From Paraspadella gotoi (Eukaryota > Animalia > Chaetognatha): a stretch of 64,000 bases of DNA. Under the pieces are notes generated by a model. The model worked only from the letters and a program-made list of their open reading frames with translations, was not told the DNA's origin and searched no databases. Shown piece by piece: positions 8,257 to 40,561 of the stretch. How positions within the stretch are numbered: the stretch's first letter is position 1; every line of letters starts with the position of its first letter. The stretch lies in contig CM119266.1 in NCBI GenBank assembly GCA_051294375.1, forward strand, positions 18,648,087 to 18,712,086. The letters are read 5' to 3'. Made by a program: the position numbers and the translations under genes.

Positions 8257-8722
8257 ACGATTTGTATTTTATTAAACATTTGAGAGAGAAACCCAATTGC
8301 GCGAGAGGTTAAAAGGATGAAGGAATAACAATTTATTTTTCAAAATAAGACAAAAAACTTATTGCGGCCAAGATTTAATTTCAAGCAATAAAAGAAAATA
8401 ATAAAATTATGAAATCGGAGCAACCAATATAAAATTTATCCATTCATTCAATAAATAGGACATCTTCTCCCTAACTTTTGCCATGGCCGTTGGCCAGGAT
8501 ATTTTAGATTATTTTACTTGGATAGTTGGAGATTGATGACTCAGTAAAGATTGATTGATTGATTAATTGTTGATTGTTTAGCGAACCCACGATTAAAGAT
8601 GGACATTAATTATCGGTAAAATGACAAAAAGAATCAAAAATATAGCTTGGGAGAGTGTACTGGCACGAAAAATTATTAGCAATGGGCGAAAAATATAGTT
8701 TTGGCATTGACGTGTATGGGGC

Positions 8723-13210: not shown

Positions 13211-16200
13211 CGGCACACTTGGCGTAGACTGGCGCGACGAGGCGCGGATTGGCGAACGTAAATAAGTGCTTTCGAAACGAAATACAACAAAAATTAAAAA
13301 ACTAAAATGTAGTTCGTTGCTAAAAAAAATGCAAAAAAAAAAAACACAAAAAACAAAACCAACAACACAAAATAAAAGAATAATCGACTCGCTCTCTCTC
13401 TATCTCTCTCAGCTACGTTATGACGAGAGGCATGGCGTTAAGGGTGTGACGTCAAAAAAATAAGGAGGGCGGATTGACGCGACGTCATTTTATTTGACGC
13501 TCTAATCCGAAACATTTTACGAATTAATTCGCTTAAAAAAAATCAACCGCAATTTTATTTCTGCAACTTAAAAAAAGTCGAGGGAAAGAAAAAAGAACCT
13601 CGCCCACATTTAAAAATAATAATTACGCTGTTGTTGATGTTTTTCTGAAACTCTTTTTTTTTTGTTCCGTTTTGCTACTGTGAAATACTGTGTAGTATCG
13701 TCCAATGCTGCTTTTTTGAATCTTTTTTTTTTCATTGGTCTTTGGTGATGAAGTAGTATTTGAGCGAATCACTTTAAAGTCCAGGAATATTTTTTCTTTA
13801 CCACAAAAATTGAATGTTTTTAATTCTCCCACCGTTTTATGAACCCTCCATTTTTATAGAATTTTTTTTTGGCTGAGATCACGCTTGGAGAAATACAGGT
13901 TAATATGCTCGCAATATTTATTAGTACGAAATTTTTTTATATTTCTTATAAGAAAAAAATGTAATTTAAGTTTTATGTCCGTCCGTCCATCCGAAGGTCT
14001 GTCACCAATTGTTTTTAAATGCAATTAAGTGCATGTGTGAAGTAATTAATTTGAATGCAGCAGTGAGAAATTATGAGTCGCCACAAAAGTGAATTGTAAA
14101 AAAAAATAGAGAAAACCGCGAGGTGAAAATAAAACTTTGTGAAGGGAATGCAAGTCTATGAAGCGCGAGGTTATTTATTATACAATCGAATGTGCAATTG
14201 ACATACTGATAAAAATAATTCTGATATACTTAATTAGAGCTAACAATAAAAATAGGTCTATAAATATTATTAATTATTAAATCATTTCAGTAATGATCAT
14301 TAACTCGGCTAATGCAAATTAACATTATTTATTTGTATAACTAGTAAATAGTAAATTAAAGATTAGTTTTTGGTGTATTCCTACATATCAATTTGTGTAA
14401 ATTTTAAAGATAAAAATATTATAATTCAATACATTGTGTAAATACACCTAAAGCTTTTTCATACATTTATAGTTATTTATACTTTCATTTAGACCTTGAG
14501 CAATTTATTTTTTTTAAATTCAAATAAACTTTTTAATTAAAATTTTAAACAGAATGCTTTTAAAAAATTACCCATCTTAATCCTTTTTTTACTGATACCA
14601 CTTTCTTATATAAACTGTACATTGCTTAGTGGTTTCAGCGGGTTCCTTCATCTATTAAAATCGATTCTATTTTTTTTTTTGTGCTATTTTTGAGAATAAT
14701 GCGTAAAGTAGATTGATGGTGCTACGTAAGAAATTGTTACAACAAATATAAAAATGGTTCATTCATTTAATAAACATTAAACAAGGTATCTTGCCACTGA
14801 CTTCGGACAAGATACATGAAGTTAAACCTAATCAATTTTTATTATACTTTTTTCGAAAAACAATGACTAAATGTTTTTTTGAACTGTCGATAAATTTAAC
14901 CTCATTAAAACAAAGTTTCATTAATTTGGAAATAACCCAAAAGCTAAAGGTTTTTTAAAAAGATTTGTACAAAACAATTTAATTAAATTCTAGTTGATGT
15001 TGATGCTGAAAACCGTTTTTTTATCCTTAGCAATGCGTATATCTAGAAATGCTTGGTTGTACTTCTCAACCCGATTTTCATCAAATTTTGTTTGTGCTTT
15101 TTTCGCGTTTTTTTTTCTACGAGCGTTGTTTGCATGTTTGTATTGTTTTAACGATTAAAGAATCAAGCTCATTACTTGTATTGTAGCAACAAAACTGGAG
15201 ATAATGTAAAAAAAAAGAAATTAACTAATCCTTGCTAAAATTGTATCTCGAAGCTCAACGCGACCAAAACCAATTAAGTTGCTAACAACTATTTTTTGTT
15301 GATTAAAAAAAAACTTCCGGTGCCCTAAAAAACGGTGACTTCTGTACAACGTGCGAATCGACCATTGTGTAACGAAAGATACCATTAAACGAATAAAGAT
15401 TTTTTACCTCAATATGTTTCTTCTTTATTTTTTGATTGCCATTTCGCTAAAACGGTTTCCCACTGTCGTACAGTGCTCTCTCGGTCGATTCATTCCGTTT
15501 TTTGTTCGACTCTGGTCACTCTGTACTTTTATCTGTGTCATTTAAAAAAAAACAAAAAAACTACGATTCCACTTAATAATCTTTTTTTCTTTCTAAAAAA
15601 CTCAATTTTTTCGGATTTTCTCTTCAATTTTTAGAAAATTCGAAAAATTGTCTAATCTGTGCATTAAAGCGTAGCAAAAATATTAAAATAAAGTAGAATC
15701 AAAATTCGAATTGTAGATCATGAACTCTTGAACAGGCTTGTACCTGTGAACATTTTTAAATAAAAAAAATATTTTTTAATTGTCAATTTTCGCATTAGTT
15801 ATTAGCCTATATTATAAAAATGTAAAAATTTTAACACGTTTTTTTGAAGTTCTTGATTCTCGCAAAGTTTCTCATTCCAAATTAGGTGGAGAAAACGAAT
15901 ATCACCATTAAAAATTTCTCCGGATGCGCTATATGGACTTTCCGCGCCACTTTTTGCGCAAACCACTTCCGGTTGAAAAAAGATAAGAATTTTTAAAAGA
16001 AGCAAGCAATTAATTGAGCCAGCACACTTAGTAATTAATCAAAATACAGTTACTTATAATCTTAATACCTAATTATTTGGTTTTGCTTTATAAATTACAT
16101 TTTGTATGTCAAAGGATAACAATTAAAAAAGGCTTTATATTATAAAATGCTGGCTTTTGACAAAATTATGGGTAAAAACTTTCACTAACTGATGTTTTGG

Positions 16201-17336
16201 CCTTTGGAAAAACCACTTAAAAATCTACTTTTAAAAAAATTAATATTGAGGGAGAGAAACAGTCTTGCAAAAATTTGGGTAAAACTTTTGGAATAAATTA
16301 AATTGTGCTTCTCACAAATTATGATGGTAATAAAAAATTATATGCACCCATATTTTTTAAATAAGATAATTCAAACGATAGGGGAAAAAGAAACGAGTTT
16401 AGCATAATTTAATAATCTATATTATGTCATTAATTTATAAGTTAGTAATATCGGTGTCCTCAAAGTTACCTTTAAACCTTCACAGTTGATATTATGTCTT
16501 TAAGATTCACTATATTTTTCAATTTAGAAAAATATTATTTTCATATTTAATGCCGAATTTTATATATGATGATATTATTGGAAGGTTAAAAATGTAGTTG
16601 ATAACAATACAATTAAAAAGGGAGAAAAAACATTGTTTTCGTTACTGGCTTGAAATTCGAATGAGAGAAACTTTACAATGTAAGGAAACGAAGACGACTG
16701 AGGCTTGACTGTAGTTCGGTGAAAGGATTCTTTGGTAACCGAGGTTTACTCAAGTTGCCAGAATATATTTATTTTGCCCAGACTTCTAATACAGTCAGTA
16801 GTACAATTACTTTATACTTGCTACATGACCTTGTAGTCTGGCATTTCTCTATCGTCTGGACCTCAGGTCTGCTGTGAGACGTTACAATCGTCATTGGGCC
16901 TTAGATCCGGTGGCCTCGTTTCCTCGGCGCTATATCTACGTAACCGAGAGTTTTAGTGCTGAGTTAGCACAAGAATTAGTTGTCTAGGAAGCATTGATTC
17001 TCTATAATCATTTATCGCGACGTCCGCTCGCAATTTTTGGTGACAATGCAATACAAACTATATAAATTATTCATTTAAAAAATAGCTGTCTTGCCGTTTT
17101 GGGACTGGCTATGGTGAGTTAAGGCATCTATCATCTTTCATCATTATATTTTTATTAGAGTTAAAGTTGTAGAGATTTTTATTTTCATTGAACTCTAATA
17201 TTAATAATAAAAATGAAAAGAAAGGAAAAGATACGAACTTTCTATTTTTTAAATTTATTTTTACTTCTTCAAAGATTATTTTGTATTTTGCACTTTATTT
17301 TTAATCAAAATATTTTAATTATTGTTAAAATTGTGT

Positions 17337-17545: not shown

Positions 17546-19559
17546 CTGCTGAGGGGCATAGAAGTTACTGAATGCAGTCTTCAGCCCACTTATCGCTTAT
17601 TCACAATTGTTCTTATTAATGTCATTATGGATCAGTTAACTAATAAAAAATATTAAACACATATTATAAAAATATAATAGTAAAATAATTGTTAATTTAA
17701 AGAATAGTATTTGAAAAATCTTTCAAAAATATGATTATTTCCTGTCTTTTTTATTTCGAGGTAATATTGATAAAAATATTTAATATTTTTAAAAATTTAC
17801 ATTTAAATTATAATTCATAAAAAGTAAAATAATCATTCAGCTGTGTATAATTAACCATAAAATAAATAATTTTAAGTTTAAATCGTTTTATTCCTAAAAA
17901 CAAGTTATTTTTTAACCGGAAGTGGTACGCCACATAAAGTGCGTGAAAGTCCATAATTCTCGACCTGAGAATTTTTCATTGTGATATTCGTTTTTATCAA
18001 TAAAATTGGAATGAGAAACTTTGCAAGAACAACAACTTTTCCAAAGTGGGATATTTTTGGGAGGCCTAGCCTATATTATAAAAATGTAAAAATTTTAACA
18101 CGTTTTTTTTATTTTTGAAAGCAGATTCGAATTTCTCAGGAAATGTAACTCTTTTTAGAAAATTATTTCATTAAGTAGGTCAAAATCCTAAAAAAACTAT
18201 TATAATTAACCTATAATTAAATTTTAGTATAAAAAATATAGTTTTTTAAATTTTTAGCTAACTTAATAAAATAATTTTTGATTAAGACTTTTTCTTTTAT
18301 CAACTTTTTATTAGGAATTCGAATCTGCTTTTAAAACTAAGAAAAAACTATTTTAAAATTTTGACATTTTCTATGGTAAGTACTATGTATAAATATGGGC
18401 TAATACGAAAATTAAAAACTTGATGATTTTTTTATATATCAATGTTCTTTAGTACAAAACTGTTCATAATCAATTATTCGAATTTTGATCTGCAACTTTC
18501 ACTACGCCTTACTGTGCATGAATACTTTCTTTTTGACTTTTAATCGTCGCAAATGACGAAAACACTTTGTATCTTTGTAGAAAAGATGATATATAAAACA
18601 AGAATATAGATTTATTAAAAATGTAAACAAAAAAAAGACCATTGGCTTTCACGAATCATTTTTTTGGGTAATATTTCGTGTTGTAACCGATGAGTGAAGA
18701 AAACAAAAAGATCAATCGTCTGATTTCTGTGTTTCTCTCTTTCTAACGATAGATGGAGCTTATTTCTTTTTCATGAAACCTAGTCTTTCAAAACAAAAAC
18801 AAAAAACAAACAAAAAAAGAAAAACACTTTCCCGTTTTTCTCTTCCTTTTATTCTCTAAAGCCTTTTTGATTTTCCTAGACTTTGTACGATGTATAAATA
18901 TAAAACAAAGAAAGCGATTTATTTTTCTTTTTTGTATGCATAGAATCGTTATTTGTATAATTAAATTTTCAATGAGAGAAAGTATTCATATCTTTTAGAA
19001 CCAAATTAAAAAAAAACACACACACACGTCTTTCCAACTATAAAAAAATCATAAATATTAATATTATTAAAAAATATGAATTAATAATTTCTGATGGCAG
19101 AAATCCTCTGCTGTTGTTTAGCTTCTTTCACAAAGGAGCAAATTAATGCTACGTACGTTACGTCATTATGAAATAAATTATTAAATAAAAACATGAAAAC
19201 AATTTACTTTTTTATTGCTTACCATCATAGCTATAATTTCAAGGTACGAAGTAACTACCATTTCAGTATAACTTTTAGTTTCTTTTTTTTATATCAGTAC
19301 TTTTGTTTTGATCGGTAATGTAATGTAAACCAATTCTTGAATATAATTTTCATTGCGTTATATGTAATTTGTGATTTCATTATTTGAGGAGTTAAAGATA
19401 AACTGAGTCCATTTTTTTTACTAGTTAGACATGAAATTAATCAATAGTCGTCATAATTTAACAAATCAATAGTTCAATACCCACTTAGCCCACTTAGCGC
19501 CTTATCCACAAGACCACCAGTTTTACATCCGACCACGGAAAAATTCCTACAATCTCCAT

Positions 19560-20030
19560 TACGGTTAAGGCACGGAGATGTACGGGAGGCCCGGGCCCAG
19601 GTTAGAGTTGGTGGAGAGGCACAGAGTAGAACGGGAGGCCCGGGTTAGGGTTAGGGTTGGGGGAGGGGCTGGTGGTTAATGCATCAAAGGTGGTTAGGGT
19701 TACGGTAGATGCACGGAGATGTACAAGAGGCCTGGCCCGGGTTAGGGTTAGGAGAGAGGCACGGAGTTGAACGGGAGGCCTAGTTTAGGGTTGGGAGAAA
19801 AGCCCATGGGTGATGTGTCGAAGGCAGTTAGGGTTGAGGCATGGATATGTTAGGGTTGGGGGAGGGGCCCGTGGTTGACGCGTCGAAGGTGGTTAGGGTT
19901 AGGGTTGAGGTACGGAGATGTACAGGAAGCCCGGACCTGGGTTAGGGTTGGGGGAGAGGCATGGAATTGAACTGGAGGTCCAGGTTAGGGTGATGGGAGA
20001 AGCCCATGGGTGATGTGTTCATCCCCGTGT
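19560..20030 (+). repeat. G-rich minisatellite with embedded TTAGGG units
   Basis: Recurring ~45-50 bp subunits GGCACGGAGATGTACGGGAGGCCCGG joined by GGTTAGGGTTAGGG. Confidence 0.8.
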
Positions 20031-20821: not shown

Positions 20822-22539
20822 TTACTCTTCTTCAAAACTTTTCTTGACTTTTCTGATTGGAAGATTCTTTGCCATTTTATCCAAATTTTTTATTTCATCT
20901 TGATCCATAGTTGTAGTTCCTCCTTTGATTCCCTGTCCCTGTAATGAGTGCACAAAGTTATCAATAATAACCTATTGGTTAATTAAAAAACTGCACATGA
21001 AACCGGATTTAAATTTATTTTTCAACTTAATAAGAAACTTTAAATTACTTTTTACGTTATAATTTGTTTCCTTAACTATTTCACATCGTTTAGTCAAGAA
21101 AACCTATATTTTTTTTTATTTTTGAAGAGTCACAAGCAATTGATACTTGGATTTTGGAAAAACAAAGCTACTGTGGAAACCCTCGTCACAAAGATTTACG
21201 TCGTTGATTTAATTAAATTAATTTTATGTTAACTTAAAAAGTCAGTAACAAAAACAAACGAGATTCTACGTTTCTACAACGCAGGGGCGGCGAGAGAGGG
21301 GAAAACCCTAGCCTCAGGTGGGGGGGGGAAGAAAAAAAACCCGTATAACCTTATCTCTATTGCTGCTCATGGTTAAAAATAAGCGCTAAATTTCATCTAG
21401 TCAGAAGGTTTAACAAATTTAAACCCATCACTCAGACTAGAGGAGAGGCACAATGATTGTGATTAAAAAAAATCAAAAAACAATTCAGTAAAACACCAAT
21501 GCCAGGTTGCAGGTCCTGGAGGCAGAAGTTTGAGCACTGGAGCAATTTCCAAGGCAGAAAGCGAAAACTAAAAACTAAAATTATGGAGAGCGGGGGGGAG
21601 GCCCGGCCAGGGGCCCAGTGCCCGCCATTTCTCTCGCCGCCCCTGCTTCAACGTATTACAAATATTCAAAACAATAATAAACGGGCGATATACAACGATA
21701 CAATGATACCAGATACAACAAGGTTAAAATGTCGTTGATAAAGGCCTTGGCGCTCAATGGTTACCCTCTGTGGGCATACGAAAAGGCTAGGTACCAGCAG
21801 AACCTGGCTGAGGGTAGTGGCCACCAAGGGGCTACCCAAGTAACTGCTGATGCAAGTCCAACCTCCACCCCCCAGAATGAAGGGCAGGACTCTGCTGCCG
21901 AACAGTCTACCGGCCCACCACAGCGCAACTGGAAACTAAGCAGAGGCGTCCTAGGAACGTGGGTTACCTGTCCCTGCCCTACCACCCAAGAGAGATAAAA
22001 TCCCCAGACCGAAAACATCAGGAGCCGTCTATTGGGAGGCCTGTGCGGGGCGGGCAACCAACCCTGACAGCAGCATACGTGGGTGAGACAGGGAGTCTGT
22101 CAGATCGGTTCAGCAGCACACTAAAGAGCCCTACCGTGACTCTCGCAAATACTGGCCATCTGTTCAGAGAAACTGACTGTCTTATGCTGTCCCATGACCG
22201 GAACGGGTTCTCAAGAGGTATTAGAGAGGCGATTTACATCAAAGCCCTCGAGCCGTCTTTGAACCGTGATAGATGACAATTCGATCTCCCTCCAAGCTAT
22301 GATTCGCTTATGCTTAGTGCCTTCTCACCACAGCGCACGATGACTCTCCTGTTCCCACTCAAGCGGTCAGGCGGAGACCTCCCGATACGCAATGGATGCC
22401 CGATGCCTCAGCCTCTCCTGCAGCAACCCTGTCCGACTCTCCTCGGATCGGGCGTCCCCCAAAAAGACGGCTGCAGGAGGAGTCTCTTCCCGTAACAAAA
22501 CTGGCGAGATTAGATTAGCAACTTACCTTCCCCCCCTCT

Positions 22540-22575
<36 letters not shown>

Positions 22576-22582
22576 CTCTCTC

Positions 22583-22616
<34 letters not shown>

Positions 22617-25600
22617 AAATGTTATTTGAAAATCCAAAAACTGAATTGTGAAAGCGTGTGAGGCTTGCATTAAAGCCGAAACATGTCTGTTTAAATCTTT
22701 TAAATCGTTGTTTTAAAAAGACTTCGTCTTTAATTTCAAACTCAACTTAGAATTTCAAAAATATTTTAGATTGAAAAAAATATTTAAATGTTTGGTTTAT
22801 TTTTTTTAGTTTACTTTGTTTAATGTATTATTTTTTAAACTCAAATAATTGTTTCACTTGTATAATTTTTTCAACTTACATAATTTTTTTAGCTTGTACA
22901 ATTTTTTTCAATTTGCATAATATGTACATATATATTTACATATATATATATACATAAACATATACATGTAGTATGTACTTGAAGTTCGGACAACTCTTTT
23001 TCGTTGGCTTTGGCGTATTCTTCCAACAGCATGACAATTCCACGTCGTTCCAGGGCGCGCGCCAAGTCGTAGACTGAACGTCCCTCTTTGTTGGGTACCA
23101 TAACATCCGCTCCTCTATTAATGAGCGTCTTAAAAAAAAGATAAGTTAAGAGCCTCTTAAGCATGAAAAAATAATTTATTTTTAAAAACAAATGAACGTG
23201 ATGTCTGATTTTAATACCATGTTTAATTTGTCAGATTAGTATATAAATAAAATCTTTTAGAAATAATTTTGTACTCATAATACAATTTTTAAATCTTACT
23301 CATTATTTTTTCAAACCAGTTTTGTTCATAGTAAATAAATAAATAAATAGATAAATAAATAAATAACTGGCTTCCTTTTTCAAGAGGAGACCCTTCGATC
23401 CTCCTCCTCCTCCTTTCACGCCCGATGAGCCTCTTTCCTTTCATTGTTTTGGACTTAGAGAGTTAATAAACGAGACTGTGAGAGTCTTGATTGAAAGCTT
23501 GCAGGGACCTGCTATGTCATTATCTTTTAAGAGTGATGGAGGCCTTAAACCAGCAAAGCCTGTCCAATGTCAGGGGCAAGATAGCTTACTTATTAAATAA
23601 ATAGATAATTCATATATTGGTTGTGCCAATTCTATAAAATTCAGCTCCTTGTATTTTTATGCTGGACGGAGTTCAATATAGTATTCCCCGATCTAATACT
23701 TAAGGGAGTGGTCTTTTCATGCATTTGAAACATTCTTTTAAATATTATACCACTTCATTGTTAGGGAAGCCAGGTACTTTAGGAGTCCGTCTGTCTAGCT
23801 TTGAGCGCCAATTACTCATGAGTTTATCAGGTGATTGACTTCAAATTTTGTAGGAGAGTGTGTGATTGAGAATTTTTGATGGAATCGTCCGAGTAGAAAT
23901 AAGTTTAAATAGAAAAAAACAAAAAAACCTGTTTTACTATTTAAATATGCTATTTTTTCTTTTTAAATTGAATGTAAATGCAAACTACATTAATTAATCA
24001 ATCAATCAATCATAGTCAGTGTTATAGTCGTCATCGCCATCAGTGTCGTCGTTACTTTTATCGTGGTCATTGAACTGACAAAAAGACCTAAAAACCAACA
24101 AGATAATTAATTATCATTTAATTAATTGTTTAATTAAATAATTACCGGTAATGATCGTAGGCAACAGGCTCAAACTTGTTACAAAGATAAGTCAAAAATC
24201 AGCAATGTCGCACTTTAAAATACCTGAGCAATAAGGCCCTTGTTAGAAATTGTGGCTAGCATTAAAGGTGTCTTCAGGTCTTTGTCCACACGGTCTATCT
24301 TTGCTCCATAACGAATGAGAACTTCGGCTATTCCTTCTGTCCGAACGCCTACGAGCGCACACCTGTCCAATTAAAATATCCAGCTTTTTAAATCCTTTTC
24401 ACAAAAAATTAAAGCCATTGATTCCATTTTAATTATGAATATCTCTGCGGTTTCAAGAAAAATCAGGAGTTTTTAGAAACCGATATAAGGCAGATAATTT
24501 TTTAATACACAATGTCTACTACAAACTTACATACCAACCGTAACCACCACAAAACTTATTTCCTTATTTGAAATCTTAAAATGAATTAAAATTTTTTAAA
24601 ACATTTTTAAACATGATTATTATTATTATTATTATTATTAAATTGGTACAACCGATATAAAAATTATCCTTTCATTTAATAAATAAGCTATTTTGACCCT
24701 GACTTTGGACAGGCTTTGGTGGTTTAAGGCCTTCATCACTCTTACAAGATAATGACAAAGCAGGCCTCTGCATCTGCCTCTGCATCTGATAATTACCGCT
24801 AAATTACCCTTAGTCGATCCGACATGGTTTGTTCACTGTTCACTGTTCAATGTTCAGACTTGTTAGTTTTATAAATGCCGCCAGCAAGAACCTTTCTTTC
24901 TCTCTCTATCTCTCTCTTTCCCTCTCTCTATGTCTGTCTCTCTTTCATCAAAGAAAAAACATGACTATTTTTCAAAATAAAATTACTTGTTTGTAATCTT
25001 TAAAATAAACATTTCCATTGTAAATAAAAATCTTTAAAATTTCAAAAAAAATTTTTATATAAATATATTGCAATTTTTGTTTTTATTCGCATTCTAATAT
25101 ATTTTTTGTATATGATGATAAATACTTATCAGTGCCTTAACTAGTAACTACTACTACATTTCTTCTAAAGTATAAATGCTCCGATTATTCCGACAAGGTT
25201 CTTTTAAATACTGAAAAAACAGGTTTGAGCAAACAATGTCGGATCTGCCCACGATCATTATCGGTAATTTATTAATTAATAATTAATTTATAATTAATTA
25301 ATTCAAGTTAATTATTTAATTAATTAAGCAATTAATTATTTATTTTGATCCAAAATGTTTCTTTTTATTAATTAATTGACTGATTAATTAATTATTTATT
25401 AATTAATAGACTTATTTATTAATTAACTGATTAATGCATTTACATTTAATATAAAAAGAAAAAAGCATAATCAATTAGTGAAACATGTTTTTTGTTTTGT
25501 TCCATTTAAACTCATTTCCACTCAAATGATTCCATTGAAACTTGATTTACAGCTTAATCACACAGTTTTCTACCCACATACAAAATTTCAAGTCAATAGC

Positions 25601-28600
25601 CCCATCCACTCATGAGTAATTGGTATTCAAATAGTGAGATTTTTTTTTCCATTTAAACTAATTTTCACTCGGACGATTCCATCAAAACTTGATATCCAGC
25701 TTAATCACACACTTCCCTACCCACACACAAAATTTCATTCAAATCCATCCATCCAATCACGAGTAATTGGTGTTTTTTGCTAAGGTGGGACGAACATACA
25801 GACAGACGGACGGACGGACATCATTTTTTTTTTGGCATAATTTATCATAATTCGATGTTCTGACATGATATAAGTGAATGCCCGACAAGATTGAGGGGGC
25901 GGACCGACGGACCGACAAAGTGAATTATAGAGTCGGGATCTGCTGATAAGCAGATCCGACTAAAAAGAGTGCATAACGCTCAACAGCAACCTGTGAAGTG
26001 GAGACCATCCCTGGTTGTCCAATGCCTCTGGATTGGCCCCATCACCAAGCATGTACTCCATTAATTCCGTATTTCCACTATCTACTGCCCAATGAATAGC
26101 GTAAAGGTGGGAGGAGTCGTAGCTGTTAGCCCAAGAAAGGTTAATATCAAATAATAGGTTCTTGAGTAAAAAAAAGAAAACCGAGTTTCTAACAATTCAT
26201 AAGAAGCCTCGAAAAGACGCAAACACTTTAAGGCCTTTAATTGTCCAGAATAACAGGCAACCATCATTGCAGTTCTTCGTTGTTCCCGAGACTGAAAGTT
26301 TGGGTCAGCACCTCGTCTCATTAACGCCTGCATAATTCTAGGGAAACAAGTTTATTATTATTCATTAGAAGACGGTGATAATGTCTTTTTAGCCGCATCT
26401 GCTAACGGCAGATTCCTTCTCTATAACTCTCTTTATTACTTATGAAATAAATACAATCAATATATATAACATTTTGAATTAGAAAAAAAAAATTTATGCA
26501 TTATCTTTTTGAGTGCATATGGCATATTGTTTCAACAATTTGTTGTTAAGGAATAATATAATGAATAAATAAATAAAATAATAAAAATTAGATCCAGGAA
26601 TACTATATTCTACTCCGCAAAATTGAACTGAAATTGGTAAAATGAATAAATTAATTATCCAATATCCATTCATTGAATAAATAAGCTATCTTGCCTATGT
26701 TAATAGACTTCATATGGTGGGTTAAAGCCTCAATCCCTCTCAAAAGATGTAATAAAAAGCAGGAATCTACAGGCTTTCTTTTAAGACTCTCTCACAGTCT
26801 AGTTTATTAACTCCCAGAGTACCTGTCTTCCCTATCATTGAAGTGGTATAATTATCTCGCTCATTTTTAGTCTTTACTTGATCTTGTCCTTGAGCGCAGC
26901 ACGCATTAGCGGGGACATTCCTACTGGATCCTCGGCATTAGGATTTACTTCTCCCGTATCCATGATTTCAATCAACCCCTATAATTATGAGAAACATAAC
27001 AAATCATAACTAGATCATAACATTATAAATCATAACAGGTTTCTCAATTAATCAATTAAAAAATTATTAATCAATCATTTAACCAAATTAACAATCAATC
27101 AATCAATCAAGTAGAGAGAGTAACTTTTAAAAATAAATATAAATGTGTCTGTTGGTTTTCTAATTTAAACTTCTACGATTCCCATCAAAAATTTATATCC
27201 ATCTTTCATTTCAATTTATCAATCCGATTTTTAATAAATATAATAATTATGAGTAAATATAAGTAAAAATTTTAAGTAAATGTGACTTGAACCAGCCTCT
27301 TCAATGATCCCAAACACGCAAACCGGGCCTTTGATGTTATTTTAGCTACGCAATGGCCACCAGAATTAAGAGAAGGTTCAGAGGAGATGTTAATGGAAGT
27401 CATTTCGATGTATAAAGAAATGAATAGGCGTCTCGATTATCAAAAAGGTTAATTTACGTAATACACAACATTACCACACACGTTAAGGTCATCCAAGGCA
27501 ATCTTTTGGAGTACGTCCAGTACAGAATATGGTGACCTCTTTGTCTCGACCAACAAAGTTTCTGACCACAAACTATGAATATTCTGTTCATGGTCGAAAG
27601 CGCGAAGCCGGAACATATAAGCAGTTAGAGGTTTTAAGTTTTCCACCACAAACGACATCCCATAACTGCATAAATGAGGATAAATATTTTCTGAATTTCT
27701 CGAATTTTAGCAAGAAAATAGCTAGTCTATACTGACGTTCGTTAACACTGAACAGCATTTCCTTTTCTGTCATTTAATTAATGGAAAAATGCTTGTCCGT
27801 CTCTTTTTAAACTTGTATAACTAATATAAAATTTATCCTTTTGTAATGACGTAATATCACTATCCAATGGATATAATGGGTCCTATCATCAGCGCTGTAA
27901 TAGCATGGTTAAGGATTTATCACTTAAATTCTGAACCCAATGGTCCCGGGTTTTAACCCTGATCGGAATGGTCCTCGCTTTAGAGAGACGGGCCGGTTGA
28001 ACCGACGTTTTTAAAAGCGAGGCAACTGACGGGAAAAGCTCCCAAACCCTCAATAAAATATTGATCAGATTTTTACATTCTGAAATAAAATACAAAACAG
28101 TCTTTTTAGCTCTGTCTTTGTTAGCCTCCTACACAAAGGAGTTATAAAAATAATTTGATTCTAACTCACGACGTAATAAATTAAAATATATGAAATAATA
28201 ATTTCAACATAATCACATATGCACATTATTCAATCTTCTGAATTCTGATGTTATTTTTTGACCCAAAAGTTCCAGATTTCACCGCCTAATTTTCCTTCTT
28301 TAATCTTTATCTCTCAAACTTGGCAAAAAAAAACTTGTAAAACCCACTACTAATTGCTTAATACTAATTTATTATATCCTGCGCAAATCAAATTTTATTT
28401 CATTTTTCAAAACCACCTAAAAAAGCTAGTGAAGAGTTAGTAATAATTGTTAAGAATTAATGAGAGAACCGTTCAATATAAGCAGTACCTGAGCTTCGGA
28501 TCAGGCTGTAACACCTTGTTACAGGCGGGAAAAGCGCCCCGTCCCTCTTAACTGTTAGGCGACCACCGGGCTAGAACAACGGACCTTTGGGTTGGGAGGC

Positions 28601-29539
28601 AAATGACTTGCCTCCATCACCAATGGCCACTGATGAATGGTTGGTGGATTTTAGTCCACCATACATCCCCCCTCCCATAGGGAGAAGTCTGTTGCTTCTC
28701 TTCAGTGAATTGTTGGTGGAAAGTACGTCGCCAGGTTGAGGCATGTCGCTTGAAAGTGCTGTTGTTGCTGTTGTGTTCAGAAGTTGAGCTCACCAATGAA
28801 GCGACAGTTATGTTATGAATAATGACAGAACCGTTCAATAAAAGCAGGATGTAACACCGTGTTACAGGCGGGTTAATCGCCTCATCCCTCTTAACTGTTA
28901 GGCGACCACAGGGCTAGAACCCCTTTGGGTTGGGAGGCGAATGACTTGCCTCCTGCAGCATTGGCCAATTATGAACGGTTGTTGGATTTTAGTCCACCAT
29001 ACGAGTAATCTGTTTCATCACAAAATTATTTCTTGACTCGCCTCTTCCTATCTTTAAAAAAATTCCATGGATTACTTCAGATTTTAATAAACTTTATAAT
29101 ATATCTATAATTTTTTTTAAAAGTAGGCTCTTGAAGTGACTGAAAGGAAAAGAAATTGCCGTGCCTCTCTGTAAGTACGAATTAAATATGAGATTGCTAA
29201 CTAGTATTCTCTTACCCTGTCCGTGCAATCGCCCAGTCTCTAATTGAATCTTTAGCTTTGTACTGAAGTGTATAGAGGCACCGACTATCTCCCACTGTCA
29301 AGAGAAAATGCTTGGTATTAATTCCGCCATTCGGATCAAGAAAGAGTTAGAACCGAGAATGATTTGATTTTCTCGCAACAATGTAAAAATTAATAACAAA
29401 ATGGTCAGATGCTAAGTCTCGTAAAAAGGTCAAAAANNNNNNNNNNNNNNNNNNNNNNNNNCAGATAACATGCGACGAGTCACGGGTCAACAAGTCAATA
29501 ACAATAAAATAATAGTTAAACTGGAGAGAGAGAGGAGAG

Positions 29540-29602
<63 letters not shown>

Positions 29603-32600
29603 AGAGAGTTTTTGTTTGGCGAATTGATCGTTGTCCACATATCCCCCTACCAAAGAGTTTTTTTTTTTTTTTGTTTTTTTCTGAAATAAAAGAGACAATT
29701 TGACAGTTAAGACGATAAAAAGATAAAACGATTTGAAACAATATGACATTCAAACAATAAATGAGTATTGAGCAAGACTAATTGCACTCATGGCACTAAA
29801 AATAAAAAATAAAATTCAACAATTAAGGAAAATTGGAAATTGGAAAAGTATTAAGTATACCAATGAAAATGTGAGTAAATATTATCATTATGGTTCCTAA
29901 CATTTAAGAATAAGAGGGTTGTTGAATGTGATAGGTTTCGTCGTCGTTGTGTCCTCGTCCTCATCTGGAGATGAAGCATGGATAGTAATACGTTGAGTCA
30001 AATTGGTATTGATGATGGAGGACGGAGGAGTCGGAGGAGGAGTCGGAGGAGGAATCACGAGAGTGACCTTTTTACGAGAGTTAGCGTCTGACCATTTTGT
30101 TATTAATTATTAGGGAACGTCGGAGCTTACCATTTGTGGCAACGATCAAGAAAGAGAACCGGGAATGATTTTTGTTCGGCGAATTGATCGTTGTATAGCA
30201 GATTCCGACTCTATAATCCACTTTGTCGGCCCACCACCCCCAATATTGTCGGGCATTCATTTATATCATGTCAGAACATCGAATTATGATAAATTATGCA
30301 AAAAAAAAAAATGATGTCCGTCTGTCTGTCTGTCCGTCCCCCTCTTAGTAAAAAAACTCTAATTACTAATGATTGGCTGGATGGATTGAGATGAAATTTT
30401 GTGTGCGGGAAGGAAACTGTATGGAATCGTACAGTGTAAATCTGTATAAATGGAAAATGATGATCCTAAATGAAAAATAACAATAAAAATAAATACTTAT
30501 TAAAAATAAAAAAAAAAAAAGATTCGTTTTAATTATTCATCTGATTAGCTGTTAACCGCTAAATTATCGTGGGCAGATCCGACATTGTTTGCTCAAACTT
30601 GTTTTTGTCGCGCAGAACTGTTTTTTCAGTAACTTTTTAAATTATTGACAAACTGAAGCATTTAAATATTTGAAAATACAAAAGAAATTGATATTTTTTA
30701 TTTTCCCAAAACGGTAATTACCATCAAATTATTCGGACATTATTACAATAAAAAATGCTATAATGGAAAGTCACTAAAAGAAAACAGTGGTAAGGCGGCA
30801 GTATAGCATACACTAGGCAACAGATGATTGTTCTGCAACAGATGATTCTTCTGCGACAAAAAACTTTCAAGACCTTTGTTATCTTACGTTTTTCTGCGAG
30901 GAGCGATGCTTTTTTCTTTGCTTTGGCTAAATCTTCTTGCATTTCGTCTTGATTCTTAACTGATAAAGTTAAAGTTACAAGATTACTTGTTTTACCATAT
31001 CTTTAAGGAAAATTGTTTTTATATAGTTATAATTTTAATAAATTAATAAATTTTAACTTATTACAATATATCTTAAGATTTTGACAGTTATATTTCAATA
31101 TCATTTACTTTTAGAATATTTATGAATATTGTAAGGAGTGAAGGATATCGAGGAATTATGCATATTTAAGCGTATGTTAAAAGTAAAAATCCTAAATTTA
31201 ATTTTATTTAAAATTCTAATAGTGAGGAAGACATTGTTTAAACTTTCTTTTCGTTGTGTGATATAATTAGATACATTGTGCAACGTACAACAAAGATAAA
31301 TATTTTTAAAAACTTAATAATTATTATATATATATAAATATTATTAAGTGTTAACAATTAGCTAATAATAAATAATATAAAAAGAAGGAAAAAAATGAAA
31401 TTTTGAAAAAGATACTGTTGGTGAGGGAAATAAGTAAGTGATTTTTGAGCTCTATCTAAATTCTTAAACTTTCACTTTATCACTCACTCAATGTGTCCTT
31501 ACCTTCAGCCTGTCCTCACCTCTGACCACTATTCTTTACTCAACTCTATGTCGGAAATCTTTTTGCCCTCCCTCCCTCTCTCTTTCTCTCTCTCTCCCTC
31601 TCTCTCTCTATCTTCCTGCATATGATTTGCTTATAATTTTCAAAAACCAAATTTAACGATAATGTAAGCCGAAACATGTCCGTTTTTCTTTTTTAAAAAT
31701 AAAAAATCGTTGTTGAAACTCATTATTCAAACCTTTTCTCTAATAGTGAGGAAAGAACAAAATAGCACTTCATGAATATTGAATATTAAAAAATTTTATT
31801 AAGAATTTTAAAATTAACGCTGTAGGCTATAAATCAAAATTTTAAAATGGTTTTTGTAATATTTTTTGCACATTTGGATTGTATAGTATTTCCCGATTTA
31901 ATGCCTAAAGGAGTGGTCTTTTTTTATAATTAAAACATTCTTTGAAACATTATACCAATTCATTGATAGGTAAGCCAGGTACTCTGAGAGTGAGTAAACC
32001 AGACTGTGAGAGAAGCTTGCAGGGACCTGCTATTTCATTATCTTGTAAGAGTAATGGAGGCCTTAAACACCAAAGCCTGTCCAAAGTCAGGGACTTGATA
32101 GCTTATTTATTAAATGAATGGATAATTTTTATATTGATTGTACCAATTTCATAAAATTATTATTCTTTATGAATTAAGGTACAATGATGGACGTTGTTCA
32201 TAATTGACTTTTATAATTTTTATACATTACATATGTATACAACACATCGTTAATAAACTTTCTGTTTGATGCTTCAAATTAGATATACATGATTCTTGTA
32301 GGAAGTCATTTATGAAAATTAAAATATCTAAAAAGTTTAACATAAAGGGTGTGGAATTGACAATTTTGTTTTGGGATTAATAAAGGATATTGAAGAGACC
32401 GTAATTATTTATGCGTTTGTGACAAAACCGTTCAATATAAGCAGTCCCTGATCTTTGGATCAGGCTGTAACACCGTGTTACAGGCTGGTAAAGCGCCCCG
32501 TCCCTCTTGACTGCGAGGCGACTACCGGCGCTAAAACCCTGGACCTTTGGGTTGGGAGGCAAATGACTTGCCTCCTGCACCAATGGCCGTTGCTGAACGT

Positions 32601-33566
32601 TTGCTGGATTTTAGGCCACCATAATATGATTGTTTGCTGTGCCAAAGAATAAGACGACAAGGTAGAATCATAATCTTCTCTCAGAAAGAGAACCGGGAAT
32701 GATTTTTGTTCGGCGAATTGATCGTTGTATAGCAGATTCCGACTCTATAATCCACTTTGTCGGCCCACCACCCCNNNNNNNNNNNNNNNNNNNNNNNNNA
32801 TCCATCCAGCCAATCATAGTAATTAGAGTTTTTTACTAAGAGGGGGACGGACAGACAGACAGACGGACATCATTTTTTTTTTTTTGCATAATTTATCATA
32901 ATTCGATGTTCTGACATGATATAAATGAATGCCCGACAATATTGGGGGTGGTGGGCCGACAAAGTGGATTATAGAGTCGGAATTGCTATACAACGATCAA
33001 TTCGCCGAACAAAAATCATTCCCGGTTCTCTTTCTTGATCGTTGCCACAAATGGTAAGCTCCGACGTTCCCTAATAATTAATAACAAAATGGTCAGACGC
33101 TAACTCTCGTAAAAACGGTCACTCGTGATTCCTCCTCCGACTCCTCCTCCGACTCTCCGTCCTCCATCATCAATACCAAATTGACTCAACGTATTACTAT
33201 CCATGCTTCATCTCCAGATGAGGACGAGGACACAACGACGACGAAACCTATCAACATTCAACAACCCTCTTATTCTTAAATGTTAGGAACCATAATGATA
33301 ATATTTACTCACATTTTCATTGGTATACTTAATACTTTTCCAATTTCCAATTTTCCTTAATTGTTGAATTTTATTTTTTATTTTTAGTGCCATGAGTGCA
33401 ATTAGTCTTGCTCAATACTCATTTATTGTTTGAATGTCATATTGTTTCAAATCGTTTTATCTTTTTATCGTCTTAACTGTCAAATTGTCTCTTTTATTTC
33501 AAAAAAACAAAAAAAAAAAAAAACTCTTGGTAGGGGGATATGTGGACAACGATCAATTCGCCAAAC

Positions 33567-33632
<66 letters not shown>

Positions 33633-36600
33633 CTCTCCTCAGTTTAACTATTATTTTATTGTTATTGACTTGTTACCCGTGACCTCGTCGCATGTTATTT
33701 GACCTTTTTACGAGACTTAGCATCTGACCATTTTGTTATTAATTTTTACATTGTTGCGAGAAAATCAAATCATTCTCGGTTCTAACTCTTTCTTGATCCG
33801 AATGGCGGAATTAATACCAAGCATTTTCTCTTGACAGTGGGAGATAGTCGGTGCCTCTATACACTTCAGTACAAAGCAAAGATTCAATTAGAGACTGGGC
33901 GATTGCACGGACAGGGTAAGAGAATACTAGTTAGCAATCTCATATTTAATTCGTACTTACAGAGAGGCACGGCAATTTCTTTTCCTTTCAGTCACTTCAA
34001 GAGCCTACTTTTAAAAAAAAATTATAGATATAAAGTTTATTAAAATCTGAAGTAATCCATGGAATTTTTTAAAAAGAAGGAAGAGGCGAGTCAAGAAATA
34101 ATTTTGTGATGAAACAAATTACTCGTATGGTGGACTAAAATCCAACAACCGTTCATAATTGGCCAATGCTGCAGGAGGCAAGTCATTCGCCTCCCAACCC
34201 AAAGGGGTTCTAGCCCTGTGGTCGCCTAGCAGTTAAGAGGGATGAGGCGATTAACCCGCCTGTAACACGGTGTTACATCCTGCTTTTATTGAACGGTTCT
34301 GTCATTATTCATAACATAACTGTCGCTTCATTGGTGAGCTCAACTTCTGAACACAACCAAACAACGCACTTTCAAGCGAGCACATGCCTCAACCTGGCGA
34401 CGTACTTTCCACCACAATTCACTGAAGAGAAGCAACAGACTTCTCCCTAGGAGGGGGGATGTATGGTGGACTAAAATCCACCAACCATTCATCAGTGGCC
34501 ATTGGTGATGGAGGCAAGTCATTTGCCTCCCAACCCAAAGGTCCGTTGTTCTAGCCGGTGGTCGCCTAACAGTTAAGAGGGACGGGGCGCTTTTCCCGCC
34601 TGTAACAAGGTGTTACAGCCTGATCCGAAGTCAGGTACTGCTTATATTGAACGGTTCTCTCATTAATTCTTAACAATTATTACTAACTCTTCACTAGCTT
34701 TTTTAGGTGGTTTTGAAAAATGAAATAAAATTTGATTTGCGCAGGATATAATAAATTAGTATTAAGCAATTAGTAGTGGGTTTTACAAGTTTTTTTTTGC
34801 CAAGTTTGAGAGATAAAGATTAAAGAAGGAAAATTAGGCGGTGAAATCTGGAACTTTTGGGTCAAAAAATAACATCAGAATTCAGAAGATTGAATAATGT
34901 GCATATGTGATTATGTTGAAATTATTATTTCATATATTTTAATTTATTACGTCGTGAGTTAGAATCAAATTATTTTTATAACTCCTTTGTGTAGGAGGCT
35001 AACAAAGACAAGCTAAAAAGACTGTTTTGTATTTTATTTCAGAATGTAAAAATCTGATCAATATTTTATTGAGGGTTTGGGAGCTTTTCCCGTCAGTTGC
35101 CTCGCTTTTAAAACGTCGGTTCAACCGGCCCGTCTCTCTAAAGCGAGGACCATTCCGATCAGGGTTAAAACCCGGGACCATTGGGTTCAGAATTTAAGTG
35201 ATAAATCCTTAACCATGCTATTACAGCGCTGATGATAGGACCATTATATCCATTGGATAGTGTATTACGTCATTACAAAAGGATAAATTTATATTAGTTA
35301 TACAAGTTTAAAAAAGAGACGGACAAGCATTTTTCCATTAATTAAATGACAGAAAAGGAAATGCTGTTCAGTGTTAACGAACGTCAGTATAGACTAGCTA
35401 TTTTCTTGCTAAAATTCGAGAAATTCAGAAAATATTTATCCTCATTTATGCAGTTATGGGATGTCGTTTGTGGTGGAAAACTTAAAACCTCTAACTGCTT
35501 ATATGTTCCGGCTTCGCGCTTTCGACCATGAACAGAATATTCATAGTTTGTGGTCAGAAACTTTGTTGGTCGAGACAAAGAGGTCACCATATTCTGTACT
35601 GGACGTACTCCAAAAGATTGCCTTGGATGACCTTAACGTGTGTGGTAATGTTGTGTATTACGTAAATTAACCTTTTTGATAATCGAGACGCCTATTCATT
35701 TCTTTATACATCGAAATGACTTCCATTAACATCTCCTCTGAACCTTCTCTTATTCTGGTGGCCATTGCGTAGCTAAAATAACATCAAAGGCCCGGTTTGC
35801 GTGTTTGGGATCATTGAAGAGGCTGGTTCAAGTCACATTTACTTAAAATTTTTACTTATATTTACTCATAATTATTATATTTATTAAAAATCGGATTGAT
35901 AAATTGAAATGAAAGATGGATATAAATTTTTGATGGGAATCGTAGAAGTTTAAATTAGAAAACCAACAGACACATTTATATTTATTTTTAAAGTTACTCT
36001 CTCTACTTGATTGATTGATTGATTGTTAATTTGGTTAAATGATTGATTAATAATTTTTTAATTGATTAATTGAGAAACCTGTTATGATTTATAATGTTAT
36101 GATCTAGTTATGATTTGTTATGTTTCTCATAATTATAGGGGTTGATTGAAATCATGGATACGGGAGAAGTAAATCCTAATGCGCGAGGATCCAGTAGGAA
36201 TGTCCCCGCTAATGCGTGCTGCGCTCAAGACAAGATCAAGTAAAGACTAAAAATGAGCGAGATAATTATACCACTTCAATGATAGGGAAGACAGGTACTC
36301 TGGAGTTAATAAACTAGACTGTGAGAGAGTCTTAAAAGAAAGCCTGTAGATTCCTGCTTTTTATTACATCTTTTGAGAGGGATTGAGGCTTTAACCCACC
36401 ATATGAAGTCTATTAACATAGGCAAGATAGCTTATTTATTCAATGAATGGATATTGGATAATTAATTTATTCATTTTACCAATTTCAGTTCAATTTTGCG
36501 GAGTAGAATATAGTATTCCTGGATCTAATTTTTTATTTTATTTATTTATTCATTATATTATTCCTTACAACAAATTGTTGAAACAATATGCCATATGCAC

Positions 36601-39600
36601 TCAAAAAGATAATGCATAAATTTTTTTTTTCTAATTCAAAATGTTATATATATTGATTGTATTTATTTCATAAGTAATAAAGAGAGTTATAGAGAAGGAA
36701 TCTGCTGTTAGCAAATGCGGCTAAAAAGACATTATCCCGTCTTCTAATGAATAATAATAAACTTGTTTCCTAGAATTATGCAGGCGTTAATGAGACGAGG
36801 TGCTGACCCAAACTTTCAGTCTCGGGAACAAGAAAGAACTGCAATGATGGTTGCCTGTTATTCTGGACAATTAAAGGCCTTAAAGTGTTTGCGTCTTTTC
36901 GAGGCTTCTTATGAATTGTTAGAAACTCGGTTTCTTTTTTTTACTCAAGAACCTATTATTTGATATTAACCTTTCTTGGGCTAAAGCTACGACTCCTCCC
37001 ACCTTTACGCTATTCATTGGGCAGTAGATAGTGGAAATACGGAATTAATGGAGTACATGCTTGGTGATGGGGCCAATCCAGAGGCATTGGACAACCAGGG
37101 ATGGTCTCCATTCACAGGTTGCTGTTGAGCGTTATGCACTCTTTTTAGTCGGATCTGCTTATCAGCAGATCCCGACTCTATAATTCACTTTGTCGGTCCG
37201 TCGGTCCGCCCCCTCAATCTTGTCGGCATTCACTTATATCATGTCAGAACATCGAATTATGATAAATTATGCCAAAAAAAAAATGATGTCCGTCCGTCCG
37301 TCTGTCTGTATGTTCGTCCCACCTTAGCAAAAACACCAATTACTCGTGATTGGATGGATGGATTTGAATGAAATTTTGTGTGTGGGTAGGGAAGTGTGTG
37401 ATTAAGCTGGATATCAAGTTTTGATGGAATCGTCCGAGTGAAAATTAGTTTAAATGGAAAAAAAAATCACTATTTGAACACCAATTACTCATGAGTGGAT
37501 GGGGCTATTGACTTGAAATTTTGTATGTGGGTAGAAAACTGTGTGATTAAGCTGTAATCAAGTTTCAATGGAATCATTTGAGTGGAAATGAGTTTAAATG
37601 GAACAAAACAAAAAACATGTTTCACTAATTGATTATGCTTTTTTCTTTTTATATTAAATGTAAATGCATTAATCAGTTAATTAATAAATAAGTCTATTAA
37701 TTAATAAATAATTAATTAATCAGTCAATTAATTAATAAAAGAAACATTTTGGATCAAAATAAATAATTAATTGCTTAATTAATTAAATAATTAACTTGAA
37801 TTAATTAATTATAAATTAATTATTAATTAATAAATTACCGATAATGATCGTGGGCAGATCCGACATTGTTTGCTCAAACCTGTTTTTTCAGTATTTAAAA
37901 GAACTTTGTCGGAATAATCGGAGCATTTATACTTTAGAAGAAATGTAGTAGTAGTTACTAGTTAAGGCACTGATAAGTATTTATCATCATATACAAAAAA
38001 TATATTAGAATGCGAATAAAAACAAAAATTGCAATATATTTATATAAAAATTTTTTTGAAATTTTAAAGATTTTTATTTACAATGGAAATGTTTATTTTA
38101 AAGATTACAAACAAGTAATTTTATTTTGAAAAATAGTCATGTTTTTTCTTTGATGAAAGAGAGACAGACATAGAGAGAGGGAAAGAGAGAGATAGAGAGA
38201 GAAAGAAAGGTTCTTGCTGGCGGCATTTATAAACTAACAAGTCTGAACATTGAACAGTGAACAGTGAACAAACCATGTCGGATCGACTAAGGGTAATTTA
38301 GGCGGTAATTATCAGATGCAGAGGCAGATGCAGAGGCCTGCTTTGTCATTATCTTGTAAGAGTGATGAAGGCCTTAAACCACCAAAGCCTGTCCAAAGTC
38401 AGGGTCAAAATAGCTTATTTATTAAATGAAAGGATAATTTTTATATCGGTTGTACCAATTTAATAATAATAATAATAATAATAATCATGTTTAAAAATGT
38501 TTAAAAAAATTTTAATTCATTTTAAGATTTCAATAAAGGAAATAAGTTTTGTGGTGGTTACGGTTGGTATGTAAGTTTGTAGTAGACATTGTGTATTAAA
38601 AAATTATCTGCCTTATATCGGTTTCTAAAAACTCCTGATTTTTCTTGAAACCGCAGAGATATTCATAATTAAAATGGAATCAATGGCTTTAATTTTTTGT
38701 GAAAAGGATTTAAAAAGCTGGATATTTTAATTGGACAGGTGTGCGCTCGTAGGCGTTCGGACAGAAGGAATAGCCGAAGTTCTCATTCGTTATGGAGCAA
38801 AGATAGACCGTGTGGACAAAGACCTGAAAGACACCTTTAATGCTAGCCACAATTTCTAACAAGGGCCTTATCGCTCAGGTATTTTAAAGTGCGACATTGC
38901 TGATTTTTGACTTATCTTTGTAACAAGTTTGACCTACGATCATTACGGTAATTATTTAATTAAACAATTAATAAATGATAATAATTATCTTCATATCCTT
39001 CAAACTTGTTGGTTTTTAGTCTTTTTGTCAGTTAAATGACCACGATAAAAGCAACGACGACCTGATGGCGATGACGACTATAACACTGACTATGATTGAT
39101 TATATTAATTAATGTAGTTTGCATTTACATTCAATTTAAAAAAGAAAAATAGCATATTTAAATAGTAAAACAGGTTTTTTTTGTTTTTTTCTATTTAAAC
39201 TTATTTCTACTACGGACGATTCCATCAAAAATTCTCAATCACACACTTTCCTACAAAATTTGAAGTCAATCACCTGATAAACTCATGAGTAATTGGCGCT
39301 CAAAGCGAGACAGACGGACTCCCTAAAGTACCTGGCTTCCCTAACAATGAAGTGGTATAATATTTAAAAGAATGTTTCAAATGCATGAAAAGACCATTCC
39401 CTTTAAGTATTAGATCGGGGAATACTATATTGAACTCCGTCCAGCATAAAAATACAAGGAGCTGAATTTTAATGGAATTGGTACAACCAATATATGAATT
39501 ATCTATTTATTTAATTAGTAAGCTATCTTGCCCCTGACATTGGACAGGCTTTGCTGGTTTAAGGCCTCCATCACTCTTAAAAGATAATGAACATAGCAGG

Positions 39601-40485: not shown

Positions 40486-40561
<76 letters not shown>

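Follow-up and report, generated by a model that had tools for sequence, protein, structure and literature searches.

We analysed a window of 64,000 nucleotides (nt) from the genome of Paraspadella gotoi (Chaetognatha; contig CM119266.1 of assembly GCA_051294375.1, positions 18,648,087 to 18,712,086, forward strand; positions below are counted from its first letter). The window contains copies of a short interspersed repeat, here called Family B, which carries a predicted twister ribozyme of the P5 type, and of a second repeat, Family A, with the same predicted motif. Its GC content is 34%; simple repeats are plentiful, long genes are absent, and there is one tRNA-Leu gene. Self-comparison of the window showed that 21859–30386 recurs in inverted orientation at 32800–41266 (96% identity) and 30387–32677 directly at 42807–45115 (97.5%); gaps of N lie at 29437–29461 and 32775–32799. 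These two large duplicated blocks are probably redundant haplotypes in the assembly or a recent duplication. Several repeat copies are doubled by them. The Family B copies at 39316, 36266, 38329 and 31882 sit in duplicated blocks and are not independent insertions, and the 14 Family B matches in the window were therefore cut to 10 independent loci.

Family B has a period of 323 bp (325 bp with a majority GA insertion), and not the ∼335 bp given in a preliminary description of this DNA. The unit falls in the 150–450 bp range, with a GC content below 50% and no long terminal repeats (LTRs; neither a primer-binding site nor a polypurine tract was looked for). No open reading frame (ORF) of at least 120 amino acids was found over the Family B copies, save a chance overlap at the end of the copy at 4135. 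Contigs of 4 public runs (of 9) were mapped on 23300–23950 at 80% likeness. One run (X9) was taken for RNA by guess alone; its contig profile is like those of the DNA runs, so that it is silent on expression. Depth was present in every bin from 23454 to 23783, and summed depth over the ribozyme was 3.2–3.8 million vs. 295 in the unique left flank (run X4), where summed contig depth is not a copy number. Family B is a very abundant, non-coding repeat. Loose contig ends at 23786 carry on with the sequence that begins at 23464, and joints jump back by ∼300 nt; together with the depth over the whole unit, these observations establish that the Family B consensus is a closed circle of ∼325 nt. Both unit junctions are read through in contigs, which cannot reveal array length.

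Copy ends were placed on a tripled 323-bp unit (position 1 = 23547) under alternative scoring sets. The Family B features of the window are listed below, with copy names in brackets where these differ from the mapped start.

23451–23786 (+): one full unit in permuted phase (circle ∼233 to 240)
39316–39657 (−): counterpart of 23451 within the inverted block, not counted as independent
26587–26852 (−): second permuted copy, 0.86 unit, extending ∼40 nt beyond the common end
36265–36529 (+): duplicate of the 26587 copy (36266)
44309–44598 (+): 0.89 unit in the common phase, nearly full, with A in place of the catalytic G45 (44305)
31882–32158: duplicate of the 44309 copy
4140–4441 (+): diverged near-full copy, 0.92 unit, linker-internal start, deletion in the twister (4135)
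46096–46267 (−): 5′-truncated copy with the common 3′ end, a perfect 3-bp P2 and an insertion in L4 (46101)
24631–24772 (−): 5′-truncated copy with terminal (TAA)8, twister with 22 of 24 features
38329–38474 (+): duplicate of the 24631 copy
5271–5376 (−): old 5′-truncated copy
17068–17137 (−): old 5′-truncated copy
8407–8478 (−): short 3′ fragment with the common end
14732–14809 (−): short 3′ fragment with the common end
23616–23642 (+): short hairpin (23616–23630) and common 3′ end zone (23631–23642, 85–96 nt past the predicted cut)
23643–23676 (+): linker ("tail") that joins common end and common start; a minority of copies have it

The 23451 copy was first described as starting mid-unit, passing the common end, restarting and stopping at its own start point. 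This is what we found: it runs through the common end and the linker, restarts at TATAGTATT (23677) and covers 1.01–1.04 units, its termini overlapping by 4–13 nt. The 26587 copy, as also noted before, reads through the end-to-start junction with other breakpoints (circle 198 to 151) and has a shorter linker than 23451; its mirror at 36266 is indeed the same copy, in a duplicated block, and does not count as independent. The common ends ascribed to the 4135 and 44305 copies need amendment for the former, which has TATGGTGTT in place of TATAGTATT and begins with its first base inside the linker. Linker depth at 23658 was 389,528 (X4), a family-level value vs. 295 in the unique left flank, and amounted to 12% of the depth at 23527 in this run and to 7, 4 and 3% in the others.

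The 3′ ends of the eight non-permuted copies fell at 57, 70, 85, 85, 91, 91, 95 and 96 (first scoring set), the first two belonging to old copies with early-fading alignments. In six of the ten independent copies the 3′ end lay within one arc of 25 nt (two scoring sets, P 0.0025; 5/10 and P 0.025 with the strictest), and the 5′ ends were scattered (P 1.0). Three copies measured 0.89–1.04 units and none was longer. As had been claimed, copies span the predicted cleavage site: 8/10 cross it (first two scoring sets), and no copy ends there. The proposed circular permutation is thus upheld for two copies and by the closed circular consensus, and not for the 3′ ends as a whole, which are non-random. 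The earlier caveat of a linear short interspersed element (SINE) with a shared end stands as regards that clustered 3′ end; of the tails and target-site duplications that were to accompany it, the ten copies showed one repeat tail. The longest flank-shared words measured 3–7 nt, within the null range (mode 5) in 10/10 with approximate boundaries; a terminal simple repeat, (TAA)n, occurred in 1/10, and poly(A) in none.

The ribozyme predicted within the unit was laid out in the register of PMC10249389, in which the rice twister has T1 pairs 25–49, 26–48 and 27–47 and T2 pairs 13–31 and 14–30. Its elements in the 23451 copy are as follows.

23521–23583 (+): predicted P5-type twister ribozyme
23521–23527 / 23577–23583 (+): P5, 7 bp
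23532–23534 / 23549–23551 (+): P2
23535–23539 (+): L1 (G45–G49)
23540–23545 (+): P1, reduced to the 6-nt palindrome AGGCCT
23546–23547 (+): predicted U/A cleavage site (U6/A7), placed from the twister U6–A7 site (PMC6154101, PMC8501958)
23552–23553 / 23569–23570 (+): T2
23559–23562 / 23571–23574 (+): P4, 4 bp
23563–23570 (+): L4

The top Rfam match in the unit is Twister-P5 (RF02684). At 23527, 23553 and 23568 the 23451 copy lacks the letters of the family majority, and these (97.9, 95.0 and 98.8%, X4) restore P5, C14 and A29. Taken one column at a time, the majority letters of the four runs satisfy 23 of 24 twister features, the missing one being C11–A42. In 960 block-shuffled windows, at least 23 features were reached 14 times, or ∼7e-5 per unit over both strands. 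U6 A7 A8, C14, G23 U24, A28 A29 G30 and G45 A46 are all present in the majority letters, and each good window copy lacks 0–2 of the conserved twister bases. Among the positions listed for 23521–23583, 23532 alone had a minority letter at 5% or more. All five pairs of T1 and T2 form in the 44305 copy and in the majority, two of them being compensatory. With respect to the Rfam consensus and phage P5 twisters, Family B has U–A for G47–C27, A–U for G13–C31 and U–A for G22–C33, all compensatory changes; swaps of T1 and T2 pairs are reported to keep activity, and P1 to be dispensable (PMC5113685). The P2 pair 9–44 is U–A in three and G–C in three of 7 window copies. We regard the predicted Family B twister as very likely real.

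Viral contigs served as a positive control. Among distinct contexts of the canonical L4 word, 39/119 scored 22–23 of 23 features; the remaining, unclassified contexts are probably other permutation types. Seven of 8 phage control loci, with 53.5–60.8 bits, were above the Rfam P5 threshold, and P2 has 3 bp in 28/39 phage P5 twisters, vs. 4 bp in the Rfam model. Many phage contigs (loci L033–L165 and L170–L204) carry several P5-type twisters at a spacing of 1–3 kb. Three other readings of the Family B motif were rejected. A register with the upstream GAGAG as L1, as in the Rfam alignment, fails in two T1 pairs. Neither a hammerhead nor a hatchet was matched by Rfam, up to E 10, in the pair of copies scanned. 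The window has no exact hammerhead core with stem II, the core search returning one word with a single mismatch in 1/6 copies scanned.

The P1 of Family B is not closed as a hairpin of the phage type. In 39/39 phage P5 twisters the P1 spacer is 11–39 nt long; a pattern with spacers of 9–30 nt returned 35 viral loci (14–30 nt), and one with spacers of 4–8 nt returned 1 viral and 3 prokaryote matches, with no clean twister among them. AGGCCT is present in 5/9 copies spanning P1, is self-complementary with wobble pairs in 2/9 and broken in 2/9; self-complementary hexamers make up 1.6% of all hexamers, or 5.3% counting G–U pairs. The palindrome could form one base pair capped by a palindromic tetraloop, or else a duplex of 6 bp between two molecules. 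In the axolotl hammerhead, which has one base pair and a palindromic tetraloop, the monomer cleaves poorly and the dimer well (PMC7229834), and Penelope hammerheads are palindromic (PMC6765202). Dimer-dependent cleavage of the Family B twister would be about even to likely. A cofold of two twister stretches had an energy below that of two monomers, but since the twister fold was not recovered, the cofold energies were discarded as evidence.

Family A was found by the same twister scan. Its features, all on the minus strand, are:

48781–48856: Family A twister, same layout as in Family B
48857–48924: tRNA-like stretch before the twister (14.4 bits, E 2.3, below threshold)
28421–28663, 28811–29002, 44844–45062 (duplicate 32382–32623) and 48779–48931: Family A copies

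The unit is ∼220–240 bp long with two fairly fixed ends and the tRNA-like head, a weak match; the 48779 copy looks intact. Its twister has C47–G27 in T1, C9–G44, A23–U32 and an 8-bp P3 hairpin, and shares the C11–A42 mismatch with Family B. P1 is the self-complementary GGCGCT in 3/4 copies, so that the palindrome is kept in A and B with different letters. A leader of ∼35 nt precedes the tRNA-like head in 3/4 copies, which would argue against a solo RNA polymerase III (Pol III) transcript. The Family A 3′ end (...TTCATAA) resembles that of Family B. The local score of A vs. B was 34 (shuffle mean 17.8, maximum 34 in 1000), and the two families may share ancestry; for this reason they are not fully independent evidence.

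We propose, with a probability of about 60%, that Family B is a retrozyme-like, non-autonomous, twister-based retroelement. Head-to-tail source loci or read-through transcripts would give multimeric RNA, in which two twisters would join by their palindromic P1s and cleave at U/A (23546/23547), releasing monomers of ∼325 nt to be sealed into circles by a host ligase. A borrowed reverse transcriptase, likely of the Penelope type, would prime at a nicked genomic site and start inside the RNA, ∼85–96 nt past the cut (zone 23631–23642). It would copy across the sealed cut and halt at or before one round, leaving 5′-truncated copies with a fixed 3′ end; from occasional other start sites, permuted copies would arise, 23451 and 26587 among them. 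The cleaved linear monomer cannot be the template, as there are copies that cross the cut; this leaves a circle or an uncut transcript. The circle is favoured by the length limit of about one unit and by the phase of the 23451 copy, and we place a circular template for the Family B copies between an even chance and likely.

The Penelope enzyme PAc starts reverse transcription in vitro within its own RNA, 111–118 nt into the ORF, and the hammerhead cut lies at 26 nt (PMC11167929); our subtraction of these published positions puts the start 85–92 nt past the cut. PAc also prefers AT-rich targets (PMC11167929), Penelope copies have an optional tail of 30–40 bp (PMC8557442), and vertebrate retrozymes are proposed to be Penelope-derived and are often dispersed monomers (bioRxiv 10.64898/2026.07.22.740005). 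The 3′ ends at +85 to +96 and the optional linker of ∼35 nt fit Penelope-type copying, and other models too.

A broken frame at 21720–22276 (+), followed by a (CT)n tract and with no hammerhead core near it, resembles, by motifs only, a Penelope-like element in its thumb and GIY-YIG end. Family B had no match to the DNA around this remnant (21881–22276) in the window self-comparison. More tentatively, and short of an even chance in our estimate, Families A and B could be the first retrozyme-like elements built on twisters, with obligate P1-swapped dimers that cut multimers to circles of ∼325 nt and Penelope-type copying that begins internally; this would be a convergence with the dimeric hammerheads found in newts and in Penelope elements.

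Several results weigh against the retrozyme-like reading. On the ribozyme side, the Twister-P5 scores were 24.9 bits (E 0.56) in the window scan and 19.7 bits (E 0.058) in 44300–44610, both from damaged copies and both below the RF02684 gathering score of 37.6 bits, and Rfam gave no twister match in 23440–23640 or in the Family A stretch. The 24-feature descriptor was written post hoc, when the motif had already been seen, and exactly 22 features were reached 178 times in the 960 shuffles (0.19 per window). No intact Family B twister is present in the window, the best three independent copies having 22/24 features with differing lesions. P2 forms 2/3 pairs in the majority (3/3 in 46101), and covariation in 7 window copies was not above shuffles (86/500, both-side changes). 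On the side of the element, permuted copies are 2/10 (23451 and 26587), one of them of full length, and most copies resemble linear elements whose 3′ end is fixed. Depth steps down upstream of the ribozyme and drops near 23677–23696, where divergence of the reference copy confounds it; this step suggests a common 5′ start as well, as in a linear element. The search for tandem arrays suggested in the preliminary description revealed none of Family B within the window. The fold of 23451, a diverged copy, had a z of 0.13 as a linear and of −0.26 as a circular molecule, no better than shuffled sequence, and retrozyme circles are described as highly self-paired (PMC7229834). The GIY-YIG-like remnant had no Pfam or solved-structure match, and the agreement of 85–92 with 85–96 nt may be due to chance.

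Because the ends are not freely permuted, the alternative that survives best is a linear SINE-like element with occasional read-through, with fixed ends TATAGT... to ...TTCATAA, a twister that is off in solo transcripts and priming at the 3′ end. Its junction-spanning copies would come from tandem source loci or from template jumps with truncation, and no circle would be involved. The clustered 3′ and scattered 5′ ends, the copy ending in (TAA)8, two near-full copies that begin at or near TATAGT, the two fixed ends and tRNA-like head of Family A and the low linker depth (3–12% of that over the twister) are all as expected of such an element. No target-site duplications above chance were found with approximate boundaries, and no poly(A). 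No tRNA or 5S match was found in 44300–44610 to E 10 (Rfam), and the runs of 4–9 T on the Family B sense strand argue against Pol III. The 23451 copy would need two independent truncations meeting within 13 nt of each other (∼9% by chance), and the linker, a single conserved sequence whose depth is that of the family, is not a set of ad hoc junctions. We consider the linear element unlikely, though it keeps a real share of the probability.

Quite improbable, in our view, is a repeat propagated as DNA, either dispersed satellite monomers or a rolling-circle derivative of Helitron type, whose permuted copies stem from circular DNA or array recombination and whose twister is a dead relic. It would account for the lack of target-site duplications, the hairpins near both ends, the very high depth and the damage to the twister in every window copy. 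Against it stand the catalytic bases, all kept in the majority sequence, and the single listed position of 23521–23583 with a minority letter of at least 5%; compensatory changes among the A, B and phage twisters point to selection on RNA, and the polarised 5′ truncation suggests reverse transcription. A chance resemblance to a twister in an ordinary unclassified interspersed repeat, which the sub-threshold Rfam scores, the post hoc descriptor and the non-significant covariation within the family would allow, is the least credible, given the 23 of 24 majority features with their null of ∼7e-5 per unit, a 7-bp P5 outside the scored features and the recurrence of this layout, spelt differently, in a second family.

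Other features of the window were recorded. The tRNA-Leu gene (anticodon AAG) lies at 8023–8105 (−). Another high-depth repeat, at 23800–24010, 25406–25631 and 25495–25774, lies immediately 3′ of the 23451 copy, and related units of 147 bp form a tandem of 1.9 copies at 25495–25771. A GC-richer tandem at 19559–20018 has periods of 49 and 199 bp with GGGTTAGGG-like words. A family resembling miniature inverted-repeat transposable elements occupies 18081–18493 (with a long inverted repeat at 18081–18370), 15663–15980, 45922–46095 and 47129–47403; one member of this family adjoins Family B copy 46101 on the 3′ side of the latter.

Pattern searches gave no relatives in metagenome, prokaryote genome or viral contigs, and a looser pattern returned 32 matches, all by chance. 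No twister retrozyme, twister SINE or dimeric twister with a palindromic P1 was found in the literature searched, subscription journals being mostly outside it; eukaryotic P5 examples in the original twister paper or its supplements may bear on novelty. Twisters are known from viroid-like circles and RNA viruses, and P5 stems make up 1% of annotated twisters (PMC7761336, bioRxiv 2022.07.19.500677, PMC6154101, PMC13725137); truncated twisters at the 5′ ends of RTE elements are mentioned as unpublished (PMC7761336).

With Twister-P5 (RF02684), Family B shares the order P2-GAxGG-P1-UAA-P2-T2-P4, the 3-bp P2 and the catalytic bases. It differs in having a 6-nt palindrome instead of a P1 hairpin (11–39 nt in phages), A–U pairs in T1, T2 and P4, a score below the gathering score and a place in an interspersed animal repeat. 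The twister variants of Schistosoma Perere-3 (PMC8501958) are likewise twisters in an animal retroelement with a weakened P1. They are of the P1 type, at the 5′ end of a coding long interspersed element, with target-site duplications beside the cut, whereas the Family B motif is P5-type and internal, with no ORF and with copies that mostly cross the cut. The SINE-like hammerhead repeats of schistosomes and newt satellite 2 (PMC6765202) are small ribozyme repeats processed from multimers, and Family A resembles them in the tRNA-like promoter just before the ribozyme; they have a hammerhead where a twister is predicted here, and Family B is without the Pol III head. A SINE derived from tRNA or 5S would have that head, a poly(A) or repeat tail and target-site duplications, on all of which Family B differs. 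Non-autonomous Penelope-like elements with pseudo-LTR tails (PMC11167929, PMC8557442) carry a hammerhead unlike Family B, and the likeness is one of pattern: a fixed 3′ end 85–96 nt past the cut, an optional extension of ∼35 nt, 5′ truncation and no clear target-site duplication. Naiad elements, which are also Penelope-like, lack canonical hammerheads.

The closest comparison is with the non-LTR retrozymes of animals (PMC7229834; bioRxiv 10.64898/2026.07.22.740005), whose size the preliminary description had found to fit the unit. Their defining feature is a type I hammerhead within tandem repeats (PMC7229834); because Family B has a predicted P5-type twister in place of the hammerhead, we do not file it as an animal retrozyme. 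What stands of the earlier interpretation is a unit of retrozyme size with a predicted ribozyme and a circular consensus. Shared are the length of 150–450 bp, non-coding sequence, low GC content, very high copy number, one self-cleaving motif per unit (predicted here), dispersed monomers and, with the amphibian type, a minimal palindromic helix. If the reading is true, the retrozyme lifestyle, with its ribozyme, its small circle and its borrowed reverse transcriptase, does not depend on hammerheads, and whole families are overlooked when hammerheads alone are surveyed. A natural twister relying on a 6-nt palindrome to engage its partner would represent a ribozyme architecture that is new and under-scored by standard models; this would explain motifs hidden in animal genomes and provide a simple on-switch, with cutting in multimers alone. 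The pattern of copy ends would then serve as a genomic test for circles as the insertion template of retrozymes.

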